Shown one piece after another: positions 4,580 through 45,914 of a DNA stretch of 64,000 bases. Numbering within the stretch: the first letter of the stretch is position 1; the number at the start of each line of letters is the position of its first letter. Source of the DNA: Minisyncoccota bacterium (lineage in GTDB: Bacteria; Patescibacteriota; Minisyncoccia; Phycocordibacterales; UBA9973); NCBI GenBank assembly GCA_031291825.1, contig JARLIG010000009.1:983-64982 (forward strand), given 5' to 3'. The translations under genes and the position numbers were made by a program. The notes beneath the pieces are model-generated. The model did no database searches, was not told where the DNA came from, and worked only from the letters and a program-made list of their open reading frames with translations.

Positions 4580-5823
4580 TTATCTCCAGGATGGCTTCCT
4601 TTTTAAAACTGTATTATAAGCTGCTTTTGCAAGCCAAAATGGAGAAACAATACTAAAAACTGGAAAATAGTAAAACATCCCAGCTGAAAGCGCCCATTTC
4701 CCTTCCGCCATCCTGCGTCCGAAAAGCATAGAAAAAAATACTAAAAAGTAGGTGATAATAAATAAGAAAAATAAAGATTGAGTATTGATAAAAAATGGAT
4801 CAAAAACAATCTTCGGATGAATACTAAAACCAACTATTTTATAAACTATATATTTTGAATAGATAAAATTTCCGAAATTATAAAGAATTCGTAGAGAAAG
4901 ATATCCAATTGCGACAACAGAAGCGATACGAGTCGGCAAAGTAAAAACTGAAAAATTTCCATAATCTTTTTTAAAAATCACATCATTGTAATCAATGGTA
5001 TTGTTAAAAAATCCAAAGATCCAACGTACACGCTGACGATAAAGTTTTCGGATGCTTCCCGGTGTATTGGTATACACATAGGCATCATTGCAATGCGCTA
5101 TTTTGTAATTATTTCTCTGCATACGATAAGCTATTTCCATGTCTTCAGTATTGTGGCCATGACGATAGCCACCCAAATCATTGAAAACTTTCTTGCGGAA
5201 AATTGTCAGCGGTCCAGGTGTCACGTCAATTGCGCCCAAGAAATCAAGCATTTTTTTGAAATAGACGCCCATATAGTATTCAGCTCTCTGTGCATTTTGG
5301 ATAAAATTATTATCATTATAAACAGTCACCGAAGGAGCCACTGCCATCACCTCTTTGTCTTTTTCAAAGTAACTCATAATGCGAACCAGAGATTCTCTAT
5401 CAGCAAAGGAGTCCGCATCTAAGCATCCAAAAAATTCAGTTTCCGAATTTTCCAAACCAAAATTAAGAGCGGTAAACTTACCACCATTTTCTTTGTGAAA
5501 AACTTTTATGTTTGAATATTTACTAAAGCGACTAATAACCTTAAAAGTATTATCAGTAGAACCATCATCAATTAAAAAAATAGTAAGTTTATCTTTTGGA
5601 TAATTTAGGTCGAGTAGCGAGCGAACTGTCTTGTAAACAGTCTTCTCTTCATTCCAGCAAGGCACCGTGATGGTAACTTTTGGATAGTGAGCAAGCTTAG
5701 TTTCGCCCTTACGGATAATTATTTTTTTTCTGTTTTCTAGAAAAGTAACGAAAAAAAACACCTGCACATACACAGACAAAAAGATGAATATATATAATAT
5801 GGTGGTTCCTATTAAAGCCATTT
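4580..5823 (-). CDS. Processive family-2 glycosyltransferase (NodC/PgaC/cellulose-synthase-like synthase) with N- and C-terminal TM helices
   Basis: Motifs DDGSTDNT, DAD (DxD), TEDxE and QRVRW (Q/RxxRW), plus flanking TM helices. Start reassigned from 5914 to the Met at 5823, because the upstream 30 codons of the 5914 ORF are a GC-rich terminator hairpin. Confidence 0.75.
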
Positions 5824-5860
5824 TCTTAAGATTAATACTAACATTTTGGGGCTTAAATGC

Positions 5861-5897
5861 AAACCCCGCACTCCGACCTAGGTCGGAGTGCGGGGTA
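5861..5897 (-). terminator. Strong GC-rich hairpin (15-17 bp perfect stem ccccgcactccgacc/ggtcggagtgcgggg) between the DUF378 gene and the GT2 gene; likely an intrinsic terminator or attenuator
   Basis: Perfect inverted repeat in the sequence. On the minus strand it is followed by tttgcattt. It lies between a stop at 5918 and a start at 5823. Confidence 0.45.
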
Positions 5898-5917
5898 GCT
5901 AAAAAAACAATCAAATA

Positions 5918-7162: not shown

Positions 7163-7215
7163 ATATTTCCACCCCGCCCTAAAGGGCACCCCTCAAGAGG
7201 GGAATTTCGATGCGT
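7163..7215. repeat. GC-rich REP-like hairpin unit (gccctaaagggc + cccctcaagagggg). It straddles the convergent stops of the dsbA-like and DUF559 genes. Copy A of a repeat also found at 8098-8190
   Basis: Two adjacent short perfect palindromes followed by a T-run on the plus strand. The sequence recurs inverted at 8098-8138 and direct at 8143-8190. Confidence 0.6.
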
Positions 7216-7666
7216 CTTTTCTTTTGTGTATTGTTTCTAGTACAAGCTGATATACACTACTCATATTTTTCTTAACATCTAAATCCAAAATTCTAACAAT
7301 CTGTAAGTTTAAACCTCCCATAAAAGCATCTCTTTCTGCATCATATTCTAATTTATCGTCATGACTTGAGCCATCTATCTCGAACACCAAACCTAGTTCA
7401 GGAATAAAAAAATCAACAATATAATTACCAATTATGACTTGCCTGTCTATGTCAAAACCGAGCTTCTTTTTATCCTTGAAAGTCTGCCAGAATAAAACTT
7501 CAGCCAAATTTCCAGCTTTTCTTAATTCTTTTGCTCTAGAAATTAAAAGTTTATTCTTTGGAATTTCCCAATATGGATATAAAGATTTAGGATCCCAAAA
7601 TGATTCCCTTTTTGAGGGGTGACTCGACCTTAGTCGAGACAGGGTGGAAAGATTCTTCTTCATCAT
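7193..7666 (-). CDS. DUF559 endonuclease-domain protein (Vsr/restriction-endonuclease-like fold)
   Basis: R..AE..FW...K.....F.RQ..IGNYIVDF......LVFEIDGSSHD......D..RD..M...GL.IVRI pattern of DUF559. The N-terminal ~30 codons include a GC-rich palindrome (ctcgaccttagtcgag), so the real start may be internal. Confidence 0.65.
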   Translation of the reverse strand: MMKKNLSTLSRLRSSHPSKRESFWDPKSLYPYWEIPKNKLLISRAKELRKAGNLAEVLFWQTFKDKKKLGFDIDRQVIIGNYIVDFFIPELGLVFEIDGSSHDDKLEYDAERDAFMGGLNLQIVRILDLDVKKNMSSVYQLVLETIHKRKDASKFPS

Positions 7667-11852: not shown

Positions 11853-11885
11853 AGAAACCCCCGCAAGGGGGTTTCGTCTTTTATG
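11853..11885. terminator. Bidirectional intrinsic-terminator-like hairpin (gaaaccccc-GCAA-gggggtttc) with flanking A/T tracts, downstream of the MazF-like gene
   Basis: Perfect 9-bp stem with a GNRA-type loop and U-tracts on both strands. It is preceded by a ggc-ttcg-gcc mini-hairpin. Confidence 0.5.
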
Positions 11886-12267
11886 GCAAGATATTGTGAA
11901 TTTTCTTAATCATTACACTAAAATCACCTTCTTTTATCATACCAATTTTTCTGGAGAGCCTTTTACTATCCAAAAGTCTTATTTGCGATAAAATACCAGC
12001 ATAAGTTTTTCCACTAAGTTCATATTGGTGATAATAATCATTATCTTTTTTTGAACTAGTTAACGGGATTGCTAAAAATATGTTGTTGTTAAATTTTCTA
12101 ATAACTAGAATAGGTCTTTCAAAGAGTTCATTTTTTCCATCTTCTTCATAGCCAATATTTTTACCTAGTGAGCAAAACCATATTTCTCTTTCATGAAAAA
12201 AGATGCCTGATTTCTTGGTTGATAAATCTTTCTTTAATTTATTCCAATCATCATATTCTTTTTCCAT
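11881..12267 (-). CDS. MazF/PemK/NdoA-family endoribonuclease toxin homologue (CcdB/MazF fold); no antitoxin gene is visible
   Basis: REIWFCSLGKNIGYEEDG...RPILVIRKFNNN..LAIPLTSS...QIRLLDSKRLSRKIGMI aligns with the PemK (GEIW..L.P..G.E..G.RPvLIV....N....V.PvTS) and NdoA (QIRTIDKQRLTDKI) signatures. It sits 6 nt after the rpoC stop. Confidence 0.7.
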   Translation of the reverse strand: MEKEYDDWNKLKKDLSTKKSGIFFHEREIWFCSLGKNIGYEEDGKNELFERPILVIRKFNNNIFLAIPLTSSKKDNDYYHQYELSGKTYAGILSQIRLLDSKRLSRKIGMIKEGDFSVMIKKIHNILP

Positions 12268-22259: not shown

Positions 22260-22300
22260 AGGGTCGACGGGTTGACTTTGACAGTCGACCCTTATTCCTT
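22260..22300 (+). promoter_or_regulatory. Divergent promoter region with a GC palindrome (gggtcgac..gtcgaccc) overlapping a TTGACA -35 for rnr; candidate operator
   Basis: 8-bp perfect palindrome arms flank ttgactttgaca; ttgaca-16 bp-tataaat sits upstream of rnr. Confidence 0.35.
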
Positions 22301-22373
22301 ATAAATATAGCATATTATAGCCTAAATGTCAAGCTTAATTTGGTATTTTAGCCATATGTGCTATATTTAAAAG

Positions 22374-24311
22374 GTGAAAAATCAAACGAACAATAAAGTA
22401 CAGGGCGTTATCTCTATCTCCTCTAAAGGCACAGGCTATGTCAAGGTTTTAGACCAAAAAGACGATATTGAAATTGATTCTCGAAATCTAAAAACTGCAC
22501 TACATGGCGATACAGTAGAGGTAGTCCTCCACCCTAAAAACCACGGGCGATTAAGCGGAGAAGTTTCTAAAATAATTTCTCGCGTGAAAATTCGCTTTGC
22601 AGGAATTTTAGAAGAAGAAAATAAAATGTTTTTTTTAAAGCCGGATGATACAAAAATGTATACCGACATTTTAGTTCCGAAAGAATCTTTAAATGGCGCA
22701 AAGGGAGGACAAAAAGTTTTTGTGGAAATAACTTCTTGGGTGGACGCAAAAAAAGCTCCGCTTGGAAAAGTGGTCAAAATTTTAGGACGTCCAGGCGACA
22801 ACGATACTGAGATGCATTCGATAGCCATGGAAAAAGGTTTCGACTCCGAACTGCCACACAAAGTGGAAGAGGAAGCCAGAAGCATCAAACAAGCAGGGAT
22901 AAAAGAAAGTGATTATGCCCTACGCCGTGACTTTAGAAAAATTTTAACTTTTACGATTGACCCCTCGGACGCTAAAGATTTCGATGATGCCCTATCTTTT
23001 AAAGAAGTTGGTAACGATGAGTATGAAATTGGCATTCACATTGCGGACGTTTCGCATTATGTAAAGGTCGGTAGCGCTTTAGATATCGAAGCGCGCGAGC
23101 GAGGTACTTCTGTTTATCTAGTAGATAGAACTATTCCGATGTTGCCAGAAATTCTTTCCAATGATTTATGCAGTTTAGTTCCTAACAAAGATAGACTCAC
23201 GATGAGCGCCGTTTTTGTAATTGATAAAAATGCGCAAGTCAAAAACGAATGGTTCGGACGTACGGTAATTCACTCGCAAAAAAGATTTACTTATGAAGAA
23301 GCAGAGGTTTCCATTAAAAAATCAACTGCTCCCCTACACAAAGAGCTCGCTATTTTAAATAATTTGGCAAAAAAACTAACAAAGGAAAGATTTTCTCAAG
23401 GCGCTATTTCGCTCGACCAAGAAGAAGTAAAATTTGTCCTTGATGAAAAAGGTGTGCCAATAAAAGTTATCAAAAAAGAGCGCGGAGATTCCAATAAGCT
23501 GATTGAAGAATTTATGCTTTTAGCAAATAGAAAAGTTGCCGAAGTATTGTCTCCTAAAAAAATCAAGGGCGTAAAAGACAAAAAAGAAGAAGAAAGTGTG
23601 TCTATTTATCGTATTCATGACTTACCAAGCAAAGAAAAAATGGCCGACTTAGCATTTTTCTTACGTAGCTTGGGACATAAAGTATCTTTACAAAATGGAA
23701 TAATTCCAACTTATGAAATAAATAAATTATTGGAAAGCTTGGCGGGAAAAAATGAAGCGGATACAGTTCACCGCGCCGTGATTCGTTCAATGGCCAAAGC
23801 AATTTATTCCACAAAGAACATCGGCCACTACGGACTAGCTTTTCAATATTACACACATTTCACTTCCCCCATCCGCAGATATCCAGACATTATGATTCAC
23901 CGGCTACTGGCTGACCATTTGGCTAAGAAAAAAAATACTATAGGTAAATTAATTGAATTCGAAAAGATGAGCCGCATTGCATCCGAACAAGAAAAGCGCG
24001 CCTCTGACGCAGAAAGGGCTTCTATCAAATACAAACAAGTCGAATATATGAGTAAACGTTTGGGTAAAAGTTTTACTGGAGTCATCAGTGGTATGACCGA
24101 ATGGGGTATGTATGTGGAAGAAACAGAAACAAAGTGTGAAGGACTGGTTCGTATGCGCGACATGGACGATGATTTTTATGTTTTCAATGAAAAAAAATTA
24201 GAATTAGTCGGACAGAAAAAGAAAAAAAGTTATCGCTTGGGTGATAAAGTAAAAATAAAAGTAAAGGCCGTTGATCTAGAAAGAAAAACCATAGACTATA
24301 CTCTGCTATGA
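22374..24311 (+). CDS. rnr: Ribonuclease R (RNB family 3'-5' exoribonuclease with a C-terminal S1 domain)
   Basis: RRDFR...TIDP.DAKDFDDA RNB motifs, cold-shock-like N-terminus, S1 domain at the C-terminus. Confidence 0.9.
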   Translation: MKNQTNNKVQGVISISSKGTGYVKVLDQKDDIEIDSRNLKTALHGDTVEVVLHPKNHGRLSGEVSKIISRVKIRFAGILEEENKMFFLKPDDTKMYTDILVPKESLNGAKGGQKVFVEITSWVDAKKAPLGKVVKILGRPGDNDTEMHSIAMEKGFDSELPHKVEEEARSIKQAGIKESDYALRRDFRKILTFTIDPSDAKDFDDALSFKEVGNDEYEIGIHIADVSHYVKVGSALDIEARERGTSVYLVDRTIPMLPEILSNDLCSLVPNKDRLTMSAVFVIDKNAQVKNEWFGRTVIHSQKRFTYEEAEVSIKKSTAPLHKELAILNNLAKKLTKERFSQGAISLDQEEVKFVLDEKGVPIKVIKKERGDSNKLIEEFMLLANRKVAEVLSPKKIKGVKDKKEEESVSIYRIHDLPSKEKMADLAFFLRSLGHKVSLQNGIIPTYEINKLLESLAGKNEADTVHRAVIRSMAKAIYSTKNIGHYGLAFQYYTHFTSPIRRYPDIMIHRLLADHLAKKKNTIGKLIEFEKMSRIASEQEKRASDAERASIKYKQVEYMSKRLGKSFTGVISGMTEWGMYVEETETKCEGLVRMRDMDDDFYVFNEKKLELVGQKKKKSYRLGDKVKIKVKAVDLERKTIDYTLL

Positions 24312-28439: not shown

Positions 28440-29270
28440 TTATAGCACTTTTTCTATTTCTTTTGATAAAAAAATCAACCAATCATTTAAAAGCTTAATG
28501 ATAATTCTGGAATCATCTGTTGGGTTTATCGCCATTTCTAGTGTCTTATACATTTCGTTTTTTTTCTCAGGATAATATTTTGAAAAACTTTCATAGCAAG
28601 TATATAAATCCCTAGTATATTTCTGTTCACGCTCCATTACCAATTCAAATCCAGTTCTTATAATACGTTTCATTATAAATGAACATTTATCTTTATACTC
28701 TTTTATATCTTGGTGTTGTTCATTTTTAAATGAATGAATATTTTTCTCTATATCATTTTTAATATCTTTATAGATAAAAGCACACTCTTTTCCTGGTTTT
28801 AATTTTGGAATATTATCGAATATATCTTTTCCATAAATACATACCGCTTGAGTTTTGAGAATTATATGTGTACCTTTTTCTTTATTAACTGCACGTTCTG
28901 GTGTAACAACAAAAATTTCAACCCTACGAACAAACGGATATTCAGTAATAATTTTTTTATTAAATTCGTTTCTCCATTCTGTGTTTATTTGTTCTTTTGG
29001 AAGATTAACAATTGCTATAGTGTCTAAGTCTGATATTTCGTCAATAGCCAAACCTTCTGCCACTGAACCTCTTATGTAAACAGAGTTAAGTATATCCCCG
29101 AAATATTTTATGTAAACATTTTTAGTTTCTTCTATGACTGGTTTCCATTTTTTTTGAAATCTATCTTCAGAAACTTTTTTTACAATAAAGCCATCTTTGT
29201 CTACCTCAAGATATCCACCGATTTTTTGTATTTTCTTTTCCATTATTACTCTTGATTTTAATCCAACCAA
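28440..29270 (-). CDS. Nucleotidyltransferase of the ANT(3'')/ANT(9) (AadA-like) family: pol-beta-type NTase domain + helical C-terminal domain
   Basis: GS-x9-SDLD motif (IRGSVAEGLAIDEISDLDTIAIV) and VEIFVV align with the AadA GSAVDGGLKPHSDIDLLV/VEVTIVV pattern. Confidence 0.55.
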   Translation of the reverse strand: MVGLKSRVIMEKKIQKIGGYLEVDKDGFIVKKVSEDRFQKKWKPVIEETKNVYIKYFGDILNSVYIRGSVAEGLAIDEISDLDTIAIVNLPKEQINTEWRNEFNKKIITEYPFVRRVEIFVVTPERAVNKEKGTHIILKTQAVCIYGKDIFDNIPKLKPGKECAFIYKDIKNDIEKNIHSFKNEQHQDIKEYKDKCSFIMKRIIRTGFELVMEREQKYTRDLYTCYESFSKYYPEKKNEMYKTLEMAINPTDDSRIIIKLLNDWLIFLSKEIEKVL

Positions 29271-29953
29271 TTTTTTACTTTTAAGGCGCCCATGGCGGCT
29301 GATTGTTCAGCTTCCTGTTTTGATTTGCCTTTGCCTTCGGCAATCAAGTCTCCCCCAAAGAAAATACCCACGGTAAAATGCTTGTCATGGTCTGGGCCTG
29401 ACTGAGTCAAAACTTTATAAGCCGGTGTGACAGACACAAATTCCTGTGCTTTTTCTTGCACCAGAGACTTCGCATCACGCCAAAGTTTTTTATTCACAAT
29501 TTCTTCGGTTTTTGGCAAAAGAGTTTTGGTGATGAATTTATTGGTGACTTCATAACCTTGGTCTATATAGATAGCTCCAACTAGCGCCTCATAAGTATTG
29601 GCTAAAATATACATTCGCGCCTTGCCGTAATCTTTCGCTTCACCTTTTGACAGAAGCAAATAATCATTCATTCCTACCTCACTCGCTATTTCAGAGATAA
29701 TGATGGCATTCACTAGAGCTGAACGCAGAGCCGTCAATTCCCCCTCTGTATAATTCGGATATTTTTTATAAAGAAAATCAGTGACGATAAGCTCAAGCAC
29801 AGCGTCGCCTAAAAATTCTAAACGTTCGTTGTGCGAGTGTGATGTTCCTCCATTCTCATTGATATAAGAACGGTGCGTAAAAGATTGTTTTAGTAAAGCT
29901 TTATTTTTAAAAACTACTTTTATTTTTTTTTCAAAATCGGAAAATTGTATCAT
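29258..29953 (-). CDS. rnc: Ribonuclease III
   Basis: ERLEFLGDAVLELIVTDFLY signature plus a C-terminal dsRBD (GKGKSKQEAEQSAA). Confidence 0.92.
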   Translation of the reverse strand: MIQFSDFEKKIKVVFKNKALLKQSFTHRSYINENGGTSHSHNERLEFLGDAVLELIVTDFLYKKYPNYTEGELTALRSALVNAIIISEIASEVGMNDYLLLSKGEAKDYGKARMYILANTYEALVGAIYIDQGYEVTNKFITKTLLPKTEEIVNKKLWRDAKSLVQEKAQEFVSVTPAYKVLTQSGPDHDKHFTVGIFFGGDLIAEGKGKSKQEAEQSAAMGALKVKNWLD

Positions 29954-36056: not shown

Positions 36057-37865
36057 TTATCTCACCTGCCAACCATTATTCTCCTTGATTTTATTAGTTA
36101 TTTTAGTCATAATATCGTTCACTTCTTGGTCAGTCAAAGTCCTTTCGTAAGACTGAAAAACTAATCTAAAAGCGTAAGAAATTTTCCCATCTTTTTTAAA
36201 TTCATCAAAAAGTTCTGGTCCTCGCACAACCACCTCTCCCATATTTTCTTTTATTATTTTTTCTACTTTGGAACTTTTTACGTCCTCTCCCACCCAGACT
36301 GCCATATCACGTGCGATAAAAGGAAACAGGGACCACATTTTAAATATCGGAGCAGAATTCTGCTGGCGGAAGGTTCCAGCCGAAGGCTGGAGTAATGCCG
36401 AAGAATTCTGCTCCGATATTTCTTTACAGAATTCATTGAGTGTCATTTCTTTTACTTCTTTTTTGTTTCCGAAGGCAATATGCATTTCTTCCCCGCTCTT
36501 TTTAAACACCGTTCCAATTTCAAAAACTTTCGCTTGTTCTACTCCCAAAAGCGGCGCATTGGCTTGATTTAACTTTACGCTTTCTTTTAATCCGTCCGAT
36601 AAATTTGTTCGCAAAAAGTTTTTGTCGGAAGCCGAAGCCAAGACAGACACTTCTCCTTTGTTACTGAAACTCGTATTCATCACCTCAGAATATCCATCAT
36701 TTAACAATTTGTGTCTGGCCCAAAGAATTTTTGAATATGTTTCATTTACTTTTGGTTTAAAATTTATTTTAGGAATATTCCCTTTTACTTTGTCGTAGCC
36801 TAAAATTCTTCCTACTTCTTCCGCCATATCTTCTTCAATCACTAAATCTAGTCGCATTGGTGGCACTGTAATTTCAAAACTTCCCCTATCTTCGCTGTAT
36901 TCAAAATTATATTTCTTTAAAATATTTTTGATTTCATCAATTGAAATGCCCACGCCTAAAATTTTAGAAATTTTATCAACGGAAAAAGAAAGTTTTTTAA
37001 CTTCCTGCTTCTTTGGGTAAACATCGACAACATCTTCAAAGGAGGCCAGAGGACACATTTCTAAGATAAGAGCTGAAAATTCAAGCATGGCATAAGAACC
37101 GAGCTCTGGAGACAAATCATTTTCAAAACGCTTTTTGGCATCAGTGACGATGTTTAAAGCTTGAGCGGTTTTGCGAACGGAAGTCGGGTCAAAATTTGCT
37201 ACCTCTAAAATAATATTTTTTGTGTCATTATTTACTTCCGCAATTTTTCCACCTTTTATCCCAGCCACGGCAAGAACATTTTTAGCGTCGGCAATAACCA
37301 AATGAGAAGTTTCTAATTTACAATCTTTGTTGTCTAATGTTGTCATCTTTTCACTATCTTTTGCCATGCGAGCCACCAACTTCTCACTCACTTTATCTAA
37401 ATCAAAAACATGTGTCGGCTGACCACAATCAAACATCACAATGTTTGCCGCATCCACCATATTATTAATGCTTCTCTGCCCTACTGATTCCAAATGCTTT
37501 ACTACCCACTCTGGAGAAGGACCAACTTTTACATTGCGAATGATTCGCCCCATGTATCGACGACATTTATCACTTTCTATTTCTATCTTTAGATTAGTCA
37601 ATTTTGATTCTGGAATTTTATATTTTGGAGTGGGGTCAACAAATTTTATATTTAAAAGTGAAGCGAGTTCTCGAGCTACTCCTTGATGTGAAAGCAAATC
37701 ATGTGCGCGGTTTGGTAAAACTTTAATATCAAAAATAATATCTCCATCAGATTTTTTTTCCAGACTTTCTACCTCGCAAAGATGGTAATTAAAAATATCA
37801 ACCAATTTTTCAGCTTCGGGAGCTTCTGGGATATACCATTTGAGCCAATTGTAGGAAATATTCAT
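36057..37865 (-). CDS. pheT: Phenylalanyl-tRNA synthetase beta subunit (reduced, 602 aa) carrying an in-frame palindromic-element insertion
   Basis: B3/B4 and B5 domains, FPFIARDMAVWV motif; its position after pheS. Confidence 0.85.
   Translation of the reverse strand: MNISYNWLKWYIPEAPEAEKLVDIFNYHLCEVESLEKKSDGDIIFDIKVLPNRAHDLLSHQGVARELASLLNIKFVDPTPKYKIPESKLTNLKIEIESDKCRRYMGRIIRNVKVGPSPEWVVKHLESVGQRSINNMVDAANIVMFDCGQPTHVFDLDKVSEKLVARMAKDSEKMTTLDNKDCKLETSHLVIADAKNVLAVAGIKGGKIAEVNNDTKNIILEVANFDPTSVRKTAQALNIVTDAKKRFENDLSPELGSYAMLEFSALILEMCPLASFEDVVDVYPKKQEVKKLSFSVDKISKILGVGISIDEIKNILKKYNFEYSEDRGSFEITVPPMRLDLVIEEDMAEEVGRILGYDKVKGNIPKINFKPKVNETYSKILWARHKLLNDGYSEVMNTSFSNKGEVSVLASASDKNFLRTNLSDGLKESVKLNQANAPLLGVEQAKVFEIGTVFKKSGEEMHIAFGNKKEVKEMTLNEFCKEISEQNSSALLQPSAGTFRQQNSAPIFKMWSLFPFIARDMAVWVGEDVKSSKVEKIIKENMGEVVVRGPELFDEFKKDGKISYAFRLVFQSYERTLTDQEVNDIMTKITNKIKENNGWQVR
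36342..36421. mobile_element. Palindromic GC-rich element, copy 1 (core A ggaaggttccagccgaaggctggagtaa between inverted arms aaatatcggagcagaattc / gaattctgctccgatattt), in frame within pheT
   Basis: Near-perfect 20-bp inverted arms and a core shared with 38375-38446 and 44486-44573. It encodes LLQPSAGTF in PheT. Confidence 0.7.
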
Positions 37866-37869
37866 AAAA

Positions 37870-38661
37870 TTAAAACTGATTGAGTCTCAAATCTCCCTGA
37901 TAAAAGAAACGTACATCGGAAATACCCCATTTAATCATCGCAATACGGTCGAGCCCATGTCCAAAAGCAAACCCTTGCACCTTCTTCGGGTCCAAGCCAA
38001 TATTGCGCAAAACATTCGGATGCAGCATTCCAGAGCCACCCATCTCTAGCCATTTACCTTTGAACTTCGCAAAAACTTCCAGCGAGGGTTCAGTGAATGG
38101 GAAAAAGCTTGGCCTAAATTCAATGACAACTTCTTCGCCCAACATTTTTTTATAAAATTGAGTCAGCACGCCTTTCATATCCGCCACCGAAATATTCTCC
38201 CCTACCATCGCGCCATCTATCTGGTAAAATTGCATTTCGTGCGTCGCGTCGGTCGCTTCGTTTCTGAAAACTTTTCCAATGGAAATAAAAGCGGCAGGGA
38301 TTCTGCCCTCTTTCCCTGCTTGTTCAATCGCCCGCGCAGTGACGGAAGTCGTGTGCGTACGAAGCACAAGAGAAGCAGGAGAAGAATTTTTTTCGTGGAA
38401 GGTTCCAGCCGAAGGCTGGAGTAAGCGAGAAAAATTCTTCTCCTGCGAATCTTTAATAAAAAAAGTGTCCTGCATATCACGGGCTGGATGATCTTTCGGA
38501 ACATTTAAAACATCAAAGTTATACCATTCACTTTCCAACTCTGGTCCAGTCGCAATTTCAAAGCCCATATCCGAAAAAACCTGAAGAGCCTCTTGCGCCA
38601 ACAACGAAAGCGGATGGATTGTTCCAGAGTCTAATTTTTTTTCATTTTCTTCGTTGCTCAT
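37870..38661 (-). CDS. pheS: Phenylalanyl-tRNA synthetase alpha subunit (reduced, 263 aa) carrying an in-frame palindromic-element insertion
   Basis: HPARDMQDTFFI ... LVLRTHTTSV ... FRPSFFPFTEPS class-II motifs. Confidence 0.88.
   Translation of the reverse strand: MSNEENEKKLDSGTIHPLSLLAQEALQVFSDMGFEIATGPELESEWYNFDVLNVPKDHPARDMQDTFFIKDSQEKNFSRLLQPSAGTFHEKNSSPASLVLRTHTTSVTARAIEQAGKEGRIPAAFISIGKVFRNEATDATHEMQFYQIDGAMVGENISVADMKGVLTQFYKKMLGEEVVIEFRPSFFPFTEPSLEVFAKFKGKWLEMGGSGMLHPNVLRNIGLDPKKVQGFAFGHGLDRIAMIKWGISDVRFFYQGDLRLNQF
38375..38446. mobile_element. Palindromic GC-rich element, copy 2 (the same core A; arms gcaggagaagaatttttttc / gagaaaaattcttctcctgc), in frame within pheS (72 bp = 24 codons)
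   Basis: The core is identical to copy 1. It sits between the conserved PheS motifs DTFFI and LRTHT, where homologues have only ~5 residues. Confidence 0.75.
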
Positions 38662-43454: not shown

Positions 43455-43570
43455 AAATTTATTTCCCTTTATTATTGATAAATCTCCGACTTAGTATAAT
43501 TTTACCATAAACACTTTCTTTTTGCGTAAAATAATGTAAATTAAGGGTATTGGATTTTATAAGCATTTTG

Positions 43571-43657
43571 GAGGGTTCGCATAGCGGTCTAGTGCGCACG
43601 CTTGGAAAGCGTGTGTGGAGCAATCCACCAGGAGTTCGAATCTCCTACCCTCCGCCA
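43571..43657 (+). tRNA. tRNA-Ser (anticodon GGA), class II with a long variable arm and a genomically encoded CCA
   Basis: Manual fold: acceptor GGAGGGT/ACCCTCC, 3-bp D-stem, anticodon stem CACGC/GCGTG with loop TTGGAAA, 16-nt variable arm, T-arm AGGAG-TTCGAAT-CTCCT, discriminator G, then CCA. Confidence 0.85.
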
Positions 43658-43658
43658 A

Positions 43659-45914
43659 TTATTTAAGCATCTTCAAGAATTCTTCTTCGCTTAAAATTTT
43701 CACTCCTAATTTTTGCGCAGTCGTAAGTTTGGAACCAGCTTCTTCTCCCACTACAACATAAGAAGTATTTTTTGAAACCGAGCCGGCGACCTTGCCACCC
43801 TGTGCCAAGATGCGTTCTTTGGCTATCTCGCGAGACATCATAGAAAGGGTGCCAGTCAAAACAAAATTCATTCCCGTAAACTTTCCAGCTTTTATTTTTT
43901 CGGCTTTTTCCACCACTACACCATTTTCTTGTAATTTTTTTATAAAATTAAGATTGCCTTTATCTTTGAAAAAATCACTGACACTTTTAGAAACTGCCGG
44001 ACCGATATTTTCAATATTATCTATCTCCGATAAGTCTGAAACCGCAGCAGAGGTTAATTTTTCTAATGTTCCAAAATGACTAGCTAAATCTCGTGCCGTC
44101 TCTTCCCCTACATGCAAAATACCAAGCGCCCATAGAAATTTGGAAAATGGAATCTTCTTTTTGTTTTTTATTTCATTGACTATATTCTCTGCCGATTTTT
44201 CTCCAAAACGTTCCATCGTGGCAATATCTTCTTTTTCCAAGGTGAAAATATCCGCTGCGTCGGTAATCAAACCCTCATCTTTAAAACGTCGCAAAATTTT
44301 TGGACCAAGTTCGTATATTTCAAAAACCGCCACAAAATGTTCTAGATATCTTTCGTTTTTCGCAGGACATTTTGGATTACTGCAATAATAGGCCACTGAG
44401 AGTTCAGCCGATGGTAAATTCCGCTGCTTTCCTCCACCCTGCGGGCGGAACCTTCCGCTAGCGGAATTCTCCATCGGCTTTCCTAGAAGTGGCGAAATTG
44501 AAGATTTCTGAACAGGGAAGGTTCCATCCGAAGGATGGAGTAAACTGGAAGAAATATTTAATTTCGCCACTTCTGCACCACACACAGGACAAGAGCTCAC
44601 CATTTTGAATTTCTTTTCTTTGCCCATTCGCATTTTTGTCAGCACTTCCACAACTTTTGGAATTACATCTCCTGCCTTTTCTATCACCACAGTATCGCCG
44701 ATACGTAAATCCAATCTTTCTATTTGGTCCATATTGTGCAAGGTCGCTTTAGAGACCGTCGAACCAGCCACCACCGTCGGCTCAAAAATCGCCAGTGGCG
44801 TCAAAACACCCGTTCTTCCGACATTAACTTTTATGTCTCTCACAATGGTCGTGGCTCGCTCTGCAGGATATTTAAACGCAGCCATATATCGTGGAGCTTT
44901 ACCGACGACGCCTAAAGTTTCCTGCAATTTCAAATCATCAACTGAGATAACTATTCCGTCCGTACCATAGGGAAAATTTGGACGAATTTTTTCAAATTTT
45001 TTAATGAAGGTTATGACTTCGCTCAGATTCTTACACAAGGCATCATTTGAGTCCACTTGAAAACCTAAACTTTTTAAATACTTATGTTTATCAGAATGTC
45101 TTTGCGGAACAAGAAAAGAATTCTGAACTGAGAAAGTTTCGTTCACAGGATGTAGGAAATTTTTCCCGCTTACTCCACCCTGCGGGCGGAACCTTCCACG
45201 TGAAAAATTTCCTACATTCTGCTCCTCCATTTCCGCAATATCATAAGCAAAAAAATCTAGGTTGCGTTCTTTTGATAAGTTGGGGTCGAGCTGTCGCAAA
45301 CTTCCAGCCGCCGCATTTCGAGTATTAGCAAAAAGCGGTTTGTCCTCACGCTCCTGCTTTTTATTTAAAGCAACCAAGGTTTTCTTAGACATTATTGCTT
45401 CTCCTCTGACTTCTATGTAGGAAGGAAATGGTTTAGGTAAAACCAGCGGTATGGAATGAATGGTTTTTAAATTTTCCGTAATATCTTCTCCGATAAATCC
45501 ATCTCCTCTCGTCGCTCCACGCACAAATTTTCCATCTTCGTAAATTAAAGAAACAGCCAATCCGTCAAATTTTACTTCACAGAAATAACCAAATTTAGCA
45601 CTAGCTGGTAGAAGTTTTTTAATTCTAGTCTCCCAATCACTCAATTCCTCCTCACTAAAAACATCATTAAGGGAAAGCATTCTGGTCTTGTGTTCTACTT
45701 TCACAAACTTATCAAGCGGCTTGCCTGCGACTCTGTTTTCCTCCGCGTTAGCATCATTAAATTCTGGATAAATTTTTAAAAATTCTTTGAGTTCGCGAGT
45801 CAGAGAATCATAGACATCATCCGTCCCTATATCCTTCACATGATAGGAAAAACGCAGACGCGCTATTTCCTCCCGCAATTTTTTTATTCTCTTTTGAGCT
45901 TCAGATTTATTCAT
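43659..45914 (-). CDS. ligA: NAD-dependent DNA ligase LigA carrying three in-frame palindromic-element insertions (two inside the Zn-finger loop)
   Basis: KxDG adenylation motif (CEVKFDGLAVSLIYEDG), OB fold, CPVCGAEV...CSNPKCPA zinc finger, HhH repeats, C-terminal BRCT. Confidence 0.9.
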   Translation of the reverse strand: MNKSEAQKRIKKLREEIARLRFSYHVKDIGTDDVYDSLTRELKEFLKIYPEFNDANAEENRVAGKPLDKFVKVEHKTRMLSLNDVFSEEELSDWETRIKKLLPASAKFGYFCEVKFDGLAVSLIYEDGKFVRGATRGDGFIGEDITENLKTIHSIPLVLPKPFPSYIEVRGEAIMSKKTLVALNKKQEREDKPLFANTRNAAAGSLRQLDPNLSKERNLDFFAYDIAEMEEQNVGNFSRGRFRPQGGVSGKNFLHPVNETFSVQNSFLVPQRHSDKHKYLKSLGFQVDSNDALCKNLSEVITFIKKFEKIRPNFPYGTDGIVISVDDLKLQETLGVVGKAPRYMAAFKYPAERATTIVRDIKVNVGRTGVLTPLAIFEPTVVAGSTVSKATLHNMDQIERLDLRIGDTVVIEKAGDVIPKVVEVLTKMRMGKEKKFKMVSSCPVCGAEVAKLNISSSLLHPSDGTFPVQKSSISPLLGKPMENSASGRFRPQGGGKQRNLPSAELSVAYYCSNPKCPAKNERYLEHFVAVFEIYELGPKILRRFKDEGLITDAADIFTLEKEDIATMERFGEKSAENIVNEIKNKKKIPFSKFLWALGILHVGEETARDLASHFGTLEKLTSAAVSDLSEIDNIENIGPAVSKSVSDFFKDKGNLNFIKKLQENGVVVEKAEKIKAGKFTGMNFVLTGTLSMMSREIAKERILAQGGKVAGSVSKNTSYVVVGEEAGSKLTTAQKLGVKILSEEEFLKMLK
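44404..44481. mobile_element. Palindromic GC-rich element, copy 3 (core B ctccaccctgcgggcggaaccttcc, the reverse-orientation variant of core A; arms agccgatggtaaattccgc / gcggaattctccatcggct), in frame within ligA
   Basis: Inverted arms are seen directly. The core is the reverse complement of core A apart from ~5 substitutions. It encodes GRFRPQGG. Confidence 0.7.
44486..44573. mobile_element. Palindromic GC-rich element, copy 4 (core A variant ggaaggttccatccgaaggatggagtaa; arms gaagtggcgaaatt / aatttcgccacttc), in frame within ligA, adjacent to copy 3
   Basis: Encodes LLHPSDGTF. Together with copy 3 it adds ~55 aa between the CPVC and CSNPKC pairs of the LigA zinc finger. Confidence 0.7.
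45146..45221. mobile_element. Palindromic GC-rich element, copy 5 (core B; arms caggatgtaggaaatttttc / gaaaaatttcctacattctg), in frame within ligA
   Basis: Encodes a second GRFRPQGG peptide ~245 aa into LigA. Confidence 0.7.

Follow-up and report, generated by a model that had tools for sequence, protein, structure and literature searches.

Paired hairpin repeats in the zinc-finger loop of LigA probably belong to a selfish, translated palindromic element family of Paceibacteria

The subject of this study is a window of 64,000 nucleotides of low-GC DNA (~38%) from a Minisyncoccota bacterium (contig JARLIG010000009.1), in which the gene of the NAD-dependent DNA ligase, ligA, encodes a Cys4 zinc finger that is enlarged by a segment of 170 nt. 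This segment probably consists of two copies of a non-autonomous hairpin repeat family, which is specific to Paceibacteria (Nomurabacteria-type members of the candidate phyla radiation, CPR), resembles the Rickettsia palindromic elements (RPE), is selfish and is translated as tolerated surface loops. A preliminary description of the sequence had taken the extra loop for two abutting palindromic elements of opposite core orientation, and we indeed located both hairpins, with their cores on opposite strands; the coordinates proposed there, 44404-44573, were correct to within ~12 nt.

The window LigA scored 742 bits against the NCBIfam LigA equivalog NF005932 (cut-off 369) in a match made up of three stretches, and adenylation, OB, HHH_2, HHH_5 and BRCT domains were recognised by Pfam, placing the protein in the LigA family. 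Of the Pfam zinc-finger model PF03119 only the C-terminal half was matched, at 20.6 bits and below the threshold of 25.8, because the insert splits the zinc finger; the Pfam and NCBIfam matches to LigA are altogether broken into separate stretches by the inserts. A protein 100% identical in sequence (P0001) comes from a metagenome-assembled genome (MAG) of 'Candidatus Pacebacteria' and carries the NCBI name 'helix-hairpin-helix domain-containing protein' only, an under-annotation to which, at a guess, the LigA inserts contributed. Six cysteines are present in the window LigA, and four of them (C442, C445, C511, and C516) are candidate zinc ligands. Between C445 and C511 lie 65 residues, compared to 14 in E. 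coli LigA, and the span from the first to the fourth cysteine is 75 aa, compared to 28-30 aa in close relatives devoid of an insert and 25 aa in E. coli. Relative to these uninserted proteins 47 aa (141 nt) are thus additional, and relative to E. coli ~50, so that the loop is unusually long, as had been described, although the excess of ~55 residues given for it was slightly too large. When the protein was aligned to E. coli LigA (2OWO) by phmmer, residues 7-236, 269-452, and 513-750 formed the aligned blocks, leaving two inserts (~237-268 and 453-512) unaligned, and the cysteine pairs fell where the preliminary description had placed them. The use of a different cysteine as zinc ligand was considered and dropped, as the window LigA offers no alternative one.

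A profile search with nhmmer identified five intact copies and one degenerate copy of the family in the window, four of them in ligA and the others in pheS and pheT (Table 1), and the core motif occurs five times where none is expected by chance. In element 3 the conserved unit extends from 44411 to 44474 and the core from 44429 to 44456; the ligA mRNA has the GGAAGG form, encoding ...MENSASGRFRPQGGGKQRNLPSAE, and the outermost pairs of the hairpin reach into the native SVA codons. Element 4 (conserved unit 44498-44561, core 44516-44543) is present in the mRNA in the CTCC form, encoding ...LNISSSLLHPSDGTFPVQKSSISPLL, and its left arm overlaps the native GAEVAK codons. The two elements share 9 nt (44485-44493), and the 196-nt Zn-loop region folds far better than shuffled sequences (z = -7.9 for the sense RNA, -8.6 for the plus-strand DNA). 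The second LigA insert (45111-45221; aa 234-268, in the nucleotidyltransferase domain) is a doublet too, since element 2 abuts element 1 in the opposite orientation. Elements 2 and 4 are also found in the closest relative (P0002, locus L067), which does not carry element 3. Orthologous copies of the pheT element occur in loci L002 and L005, and the pheS copy, which sits between the conserved segments DTFFIKD and LVLRTHTTS, has an orthologous copy in flipped orientation in L031. The adjacent genes pheT and pheS, which both encode phenylalanyl-tRNA synthetase subunits, carry one copy each, and the cores of these copies are identical. Tryptic peptides of the window LigA that would come from the inserts include LNISSSLLHPSDGTFPVQK and NLPSAELSVAYYCSNPK. 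Downstream of ligA and convergent with it, a tRNA-Ser(GGA) gene is located at 43570-43657 on the plus strand, its end being 2 nt from the ligA stop codon.

Table 1. Positions of ligA, its zinc-ligand pairs and the palindromic elements in the window, followed by loci of a second palindrome family (listed under their locus names).
Feature	Position	Strand	Details
ligA, NAD-dependent DNA ligase	43659-45914	minus	751 aa; open reading frame, homology and domain profiles
First Zn-ligand pair, CPVC (C442, C445)	44580-44591	minus	invariant in 114 relatives
Second Zn-ligand pair, CSNPKC (C511, C516)	44367-44384	minus	invariant in 114 relatives
Element 1, 76-nt hairpin, second LigA loop	45146-45221	minus	core 45173-45197; encodes GNFSRGRFRPQGGVSGKNF; profile E = 1.5e-16
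Element 2, degenerate copy	45113-45166	plus	encodes (KNF)LHPVNETFSVQNSF; profile E = 0.06; 75% identical to element 4
Element 3, 102-nt hairpin in ligA Zn loop	44392-44493	minus	arms 44392-44425 and 44460-44493; profile E = 4.5e-16
Element 4, 90-nt hairpin in ligA Zn loop	44485-44574	plus (GGAAGG strand)	arms 44485-44509 and 44550-44574, 92% complementary; profile E = 9e-15
pheT copy, 80-nt hairpin	36342-36421	plus	arms perfect (20/20); core 36368-36392; encodes SEQNSSALLQPSAGTFRQQNSAP; profile E = 2.5e-19
pheS copy	38368-38453	plus	core 38397-38421; encodes QEKNFSRLLQPSAGTFHEKNSSP; profile E = 6.9e-17
Second family, TFxQSLGPSLRSATPSQKH, L004	~5469-5576
Second family, L013	~5025-5132	minus
Second family, L063	~7547-7654

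The family found in ligA, pheS and pheT has in common a 28-nt core, GGAAGGTTCC-NNCC-GNA-GGNN-GGAG(T/G)AA, flanked by AGAATTYT inner arms. Within a unit of ~58-64 nt, the apex is a 7-bp stem (TCCNNCC/GGNNGGA) closed by a GNA triloop; further outward follow an asymmetric internal loop, in which GGAAGGT faces GTAA, then a 3-bp stem and the AGAATTYT inner arms, beyond which the stem continues for another 10-20 bp in a sequence that differs at every site. When one genome per GTDB species was scanned with the core pattern, 66 loci were obtained, of which 62 were distributed over 24 MAGs from different projects, labelled by their submitters as Nomurabacteria, Paceibacterota or Minisyncoccia, or Saccharibacteria. 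The four further hits, in GC-rich phyla, have no flanking arms and were discarded as chance matches. Viral contigs scanned with the same pattern gave no hits and hence no sign of a phage vector. All genuine copies form long hairpins, the median being 34 bp when they were folded individually as DNA. When 76 distinct copies were aligned without gaps, pairing was seen in 96.1% of the cells, compared to 79% in shuffles and 39-60% with slid partners, and both sides had changed in 15 of 22 pairs, a count to be read with the reservation that five of the seven apical pairs are fixed by the search pattern and therefore uninformative on covariation. The variable apical pair alters the encoded residues in step, Q going with A and H with G or D, indicating that the constraint is on the nucleic acid and not on the peptide. 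A scan of positions 36-46 kb against Rfam 15 (E up to 1) yielded nothing relevant, the sole overlapping match being SSRC8_2 at 22 bits against a gathering threshold of 72, and the insert peptides found no match in NCBIfam or Pfam at E up to 10.

Nearly all of 73 copies (~69) are intragenic and lie inside long open reading frames (ORFs). As judged from the sequences, the host genes encode LigA, MnmA, LeuRS, PheS, PheT, UvrA, UvrC, HolB, the CCA-adding enzyme, Tgt, PurH, a cysteine desulfurase (IscS), TypA, a Dus protein, a methyltransferase, and an FAD oxidase. In 63 copies the orientation and frame give LLxPxxGTF (..KNSS.LL(H/Q)P..GTF..(Q/K)N(S/F)S), and in the other 10 the opposite orientation is read in the frame GRF.P..G(V/G), so that at most four of the 73 fall outside the single open frame of their orientation, three of those in ORFs of 66-90 aa. 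By our estimate there are ~24 independent sites, and none of them departs from this pair of frames. For the GGAAGG strand of the consensus, the existence of one usable frame is explained by TGA and TAA stops in the two others. The opposite strand is open in all three frames, yet one frame is used there as well; candidate explanations are that it is the most hydrophilic of the three, or that it may be the only frame that stays open after inversion of the core. Nine of the ten calls in the rarer orientation (B) are in its single stop-free frame, while the tenth (L005) is probably the call of an antisense ORF in a pheS orthologue. Splicing out or bypassing of the elements would impose no constraints on frame, and removal of the elements is therefore rated very unlikely; most likely they are translated together with the host protein, as their frame usage suggests.

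For the ligase itself, the structural consequences appear to be mild. An AlphaFold2 model built on the alignment of the 114 LigA relatives had a mean predicted local distance difference test score (pLDDT) of 79 and a target-normalised TM score of 0.75 against 2OWO. In this model, strands 448-453 and 507-511 form the intact zinc-finger beta-hairpin, whereas residues 455-505 and 234-265 have a pLDDT below 50 and no secondary structure, so that the model puts the double insert between the two cysteine pairs, at the tip of this hairpin. With all four cysteines and the flanking strands conserved, the model bears out the suggestion that a Cys4 module can tolerate a double insertion, with the inserts modelled as disordered. 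According to a review, the zinc finger sets the position of the HhH domain relative to the OB fold (PMC7470946). A floppy extension at its tip is plausibly harmless to the ligase.

Comparison with relatives of the window LigA allowed us to follow the same sites through time. The 114 proteins are 72-90% identical to the window protein over alignment A1, and inserts were counted from 12 aa upwards. An insert was found in the Zn loop of 55 of them and in the second loop (after residue 234) of 40, belonging to at least nine insert peptide families, several of which occur at both loops; the suspicion that the site might be a hot spot is thus confirmed, the Zn loop being a real one. Apart from the family studied here and the second palindrome family of Table 1, at least seven families were seen in these two loops at the level of their peptides. 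Targeted insertion, a selection filter for permissive loops, and in-place turnover or inversion of an old insert would explain the hot spot equally well. By Fitch parsimony, presence and absence changed at least 38 times in the Zn loop, a figure that is probably inflated, as it was derived from a rough neighbour-joining tree that carries no support values. The nearest relatives, P0002-P0005, in which 7-14% of the conserved alignment columns differ, all carry this family in the Zn loop, while the next nearest, P0007 and P0008, have no insert there. P0002, differing from the window in 7% of the conserved columns, has element 4 only, and two Zn-loop elements occur only in the window protein and in P0005, where their order of orientation is reversed. 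The doublet of the window hence stems from gain and loss inside a lineage less than ~10% diverged. Recent tandem duplication was rejected as its origin, since 6 of 28 core positions differ between the two elements and their arms show no relation; derivation from an attC, an integron or a tRNA was dropped as well, no matching features being present.

At the DNA level, the EKK and SVA codons are 18 nt apart at two empty sites (L068 and L071) and 81 nt apart at a filled one (L070), where the interval includes a 76-nt perfect palindrome; the net gain is 63 nt. Net insert lengths at the compared LigA sites are multiples of three. Sister genomes show either short loops or single inserts that are themselves DNA palindromes, and not the equally long loop lacking a palindromic signature that would have spoken against the preliminary description. 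Locus L069 has the same site-specific arms as L070 around a core that is inverted relative to that of L070, which points to an inversion in place and not to a second insertion.

The outer arms set these elements apart from an ordinary dispersed repeat. Copies within one genome have the inner ~60-nt unit in common but not the outer arms, as exemplified by the distinctive 'gaattcgccccgc' variant in L040 and L047. Beyond the AATT anchor, the stem has a median length of 16 bp when both arms belong to one copy, and of 3 bp in controls that combine a left and a right arm taken from different copies; a duplexfold comparison of the flanks (-10.6 vs. -6.2 kcal/mol) discriminated weakly. At orthologous sites in different genomes, the arms are 30-40% identical, which is about random, yet 82-92% complementary within each copy, and the coding sequence flanking these sites is still recognisable. 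Arms of unrelated sequence that are nevertheless complementary within each copy imply that some process builds and maintains palindromes around the cores. In L070 (AAAAAG of EKK) and in element 4 of the window (GAAGTGGCGAAATT of GAEVAK), one arm reaches into conserved native codons, and its partner is an inverted copy of these codons on the unconstrained side. Among the processes considered, self-templated copying within the hairpin would fit these arms best. Template switching in quasi-palindromes is an established mechanism in E. coli.

A second peculiarity of the arms concerns their G.T wobbles. Over the window and loci L001-L065, 33 of them are on the host gene's antisense strand and 8 on its sense strand, irrespective of core orientation, in a sample that is small and in part not independent. 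The mRNA therefore bears A.C mismatches instead, and the bias is opposite to that expected from cytosine deamination of the sense or leading strand. It could be due to selection against perfect mRNA duplexes, which we consider because an RNase III is encoded in the window (29258-29953), or to the hairpin acting on the template DNA strand.

Taken together, we favour the following course of events. Copies would land in, or be copied into, many genes, and survival in essential genes would be limited to those that sit in a permissive surface loop, are a multiple of three long and are read in the one frame that is open and hydrophilic in both orientations. Such copies would be transcribed and translated as peptides of ~22 aa that are rich in Gly, Pro, Ser, Asn, and Gln and predicted to be disordered; in LigA, both peptides would extrude from the tip of the beta-hairpin, so that zinc binding and the bridging of OB and HhH are kept. 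An occupied loop would stay dynamic, with elements gained, lost, doubled or replaced, and the asymmetric core may invert in place by recombination between its own arms. The palindrome would be kept and extended outwards by a process at the DNA level, most likely template switching within the hairpin. Translation, neutrality for the ligase, inversion in place, extension of the arms by template switching, and selfish spread are the parts of this course that we infer, whereas the anatomy, the existence of the family, its in-frame position, the hot spot, the conserved Cys4 and the predicted disorder are shown by the analysis.

Several points weigh against such a selfish and translated repeat. Many of the 73 copies are orthologous, so that the counts overstate their independence; translation is deduced from frame statistics, and mobility solely from the dispersed distribution. 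Pfam searches of 40 ORFs in the window revealed no transposase, RAYT (REP-associated tyrosine transposase), integrase or Y1/HUH gene, and no target-site duplications or direct repeats were evident when filled and empty LigA sites were compared. The disorder that AlphaFold2 assigns to the insert rests on sparse alignment columns. Moreover, selection for a functional hairpin could be what lies behind arms that are near-perfect and yet evolve fast, and a simple selfish and neutral picture does not predict a wobble bias of 33:8.

The last two points lead to the idea that the hairpins are functional nucleic-acid structures kept by the host, for instance as RNase III or translation-pausing sites on the mRNAs of genes for replication and translation, or as single-stranded DNA hairpins in replication or repair, which we regard as unlikely. 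Compensatory changes do keep the structure even where the encoded residues alter, the arms remain complementary despite complete sequence turnover between orthologues, the wobbles are strand-biased relative to the host gene, an RNase III gene is at hand in the window, and GNA triloops closed by C-G are very stable DNA mini-hairpins. However, presence, family and orientation of the inserts vary among relatives that are 72-90% identical, about half of the LigA relatives do without an insert, and unrelated core families occupy the same loops. In addition, the A.C mismatches fall in the mRNA, contrary to selection for a stable mRNA hairpin, and no Rfam family was matched. A host adaptation at the protein level, in which a lineage-specific extension of the zinc finger serves as a new interaction surface, would account for inserts that are always in frame and hydrophilic, and for the use of one frame at all ~24 independent sites even though orientation A is open in three. 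This explanation seems less likely still, since unrelated enzymes carry the same peptide, residues co-vary in such a way that DNA pairing is kept, and an orientation flip in a sister genome turns LLHPAGGTF into GRLRPKGGV; furthermore, the inserts are modelled with a pLDDT below 50, their peptides match no Pfam or NCBIfam model, and close relatives lack them.

Removal of the elements before or during translation, either by intron-like cleavage and religation or by ribosomal bypassing as in T4 gene 60 and the yeast mitochondrial 'byp' elements, would relieve the cell of long near-perfect mRNA hairpins, which hinder translation and serve as RNase III substrates, and byp elements likewise are short mobile inserts in coding genes. 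Yet removal would lift the constraint on frame and stop codons that almost all of the 73 copies obey, as well as that on net insert length, and neither a stop codon at a take-off site nor matching take-off and landing codons were seen, leaving this reading with very little to recommend it. Finally, fold-back chimeras do yield inverted repeats, and the window comes from a MAG, so that assembly or amplification artefacts such as chimeric fold-back reads had to be considered; since the 28-nt core turns up, with site-specific arms and always in frame, in 24 assemblies whose projects and sequencing platforms are independent of each other, and since point substitutions distinguish orthologous copies, we find an artefact hardly credible.

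Beyond the RPE-like repeat favoured here, the arms raise a bolder and rather doubtful possibility, namely that these are mobile hairpin elements of a new class, in which the mechanism of inserting or maintaining them itself makes the site-specific palindromic arms: flanking target DNA would be copied, through fold-back or self-templating, on an intermediate that is single-stranded, without the terminal repeats or target duplications of transposase-type elements, so that the hairpin state and not the sequence is propagated and selected. If this were true, dozens of essential Paceibacteria proteins would carry loops written by a process driven by DNA structure, and the strand bias of the G.T wobbles would indicate which strand the hairpin acts on.

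The closest parallel among known systems is found in the Rickettsia palindromic elements RPE-1 to RPE-10, which are dispersed, inserted in frame in housekeeping genes, and tolerated as peptides thought to be located at the protein surface (Ogata et al. 2000, as summarised in PMC10969869). As in that system, dispersed palindromic repeats lie in frame in unrelated housekeeping genes of a bacterium with a reduced genome, with no known transposase or obvious function. However, there is no sequence relation, and all genuine copies described here are in Paceibacteria-type (CPR) MAGs and not in Rickettsiales, so that they are not members of the RPE. The unit is also shorter (~60 nt vs. ~100-150 bp), it has a conserved apical hairpin with a GNA triloop, site-specific outer arms and in-place core inversion, and the same two LigA loops are repeatedly occupied by many families. 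Whereas RPE-1 does have a curated peptide model, the insert peptides described here match none.

[quoted passage not shown] MITEs, however, have terminal repeats conserved throughout the family, target-site duplications and usually a recognisable parent insertion sequence (IS), whereas in the family described here only the inner AGAATTYT arms are conserved and the terminal 10-20 bp vary from site to site, leaving it without the terminal repeats of a MITE. Repetitive extragenic palindromic (REP) sequences with their RAYT genes and the IS200/IS605 elements offer another likeness, since they involve small GC-rich imperfect hairpins recognised as single-stranded DNA, and the strand-specific wobbles would fit a single-strand intermediate. 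REPs are by definition extragenic and flank a RAYT gene, though, while our copies are mostly intragenic and the window encodes no RAYT. Coding palindromes have also been described in mitochondrial genes of Nematomorpha (PMC6649704). In both cases long, near-perfect and locus-specific inverted repeats occur in translated genes and DNA structure coexists with protein function, but in Nematomorpha both arms encode conserved protein and no mobile core is shared, whereas here a conserved mobile core is central and the arms lie in unconstrained loops. The byp elements of Magnusiomyces capitatus mitochondria and the gap in T4 gene 60 are skipped by the ribosome and carry stop codons. Although they too are short, mobile and potentially hairpin-forming inserts that lie within essential coding genes, the elements described here are free of stops, in frame and most likely translated. 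Nor do they look like self-splicing introns or inteins, as no Rfam match was found, a peptide of ~22 aa contains no domain, and the frame and stop constraint favours translation. A literature search of incomplete coverage for coding palindromes in CPR, Patescibacteria, Parcubacteria, and Nomurabacteria returned no description of such elements, only the papers on RPE, MITEs, and Nematomorpha.

A second and unrelated family of coding palindromes, with the peptide TFxQSLGPSLRSATPSQKH, was encountered in MnmA, PurH, LigA, and another gene (Table 1), and is also present in the LigA relatives P0015, P0096, and P0103. It has the same build, consisting of a conserved centre and site-specific complementary outer arms. 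In the window, a perfect 34-nt GC-rich palindrome, made up of ACCCCGCACTCCGACCT and AGGTCGGAGTGCGGGGT, lies at 5863-5896 amid AT-rich sequence, at the 5' end of a glycosyltransferase ORF (4580-5914, minus strand), and is unrelated to the element family in ligA, pheS, and pheT. A 19-nt inverted repeat with a 40-nt spacer occupies 22297-22374, which is intergenic and directly upstream of the RNase R gene (22374-24311, plus strand). Besides the RNase III already mentioned, which bears on host mRNAs with ~30-bp hairpins, the window also encodes a MazF/PemK-type toxin (11881-12267) and a DUF559 endonuclease-like protein (7193-7666); for none of these three proteins is there evidence linking it to the elements here.

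For 25 years, selfish palindromes inserted in frame have been a curiosity nearly unique to Rickettsia, and their way of moving is still unexplained. The family described here would be the same phenomenon, independently evolved, in the candidate phyla radiation, and its wider aspects, i.e., the many families, the two LigA loops, the site-specific arms and the inversion of the core, are more interesting than the single case of LigA. As thousands of metagenomic CPR genomes supply filled, empty, flipped, doubled, and replaced states of one and the same site, the mechanism becomes open to comparative analysis. The elements would also account for part of the unexplained length variation and of the 'CPR-specific insertions' in core proteins, and they are a warning to annotators and structure predictors, for whom the Pfam zinc-finger model fails here, that such loops may be driven by DNA rather than by function. 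Conversely, the two LigA loops, including the tip of the Cys4 zinc finger, would represent naturally validated permissive sites for inserts of 20 to 50 residues.

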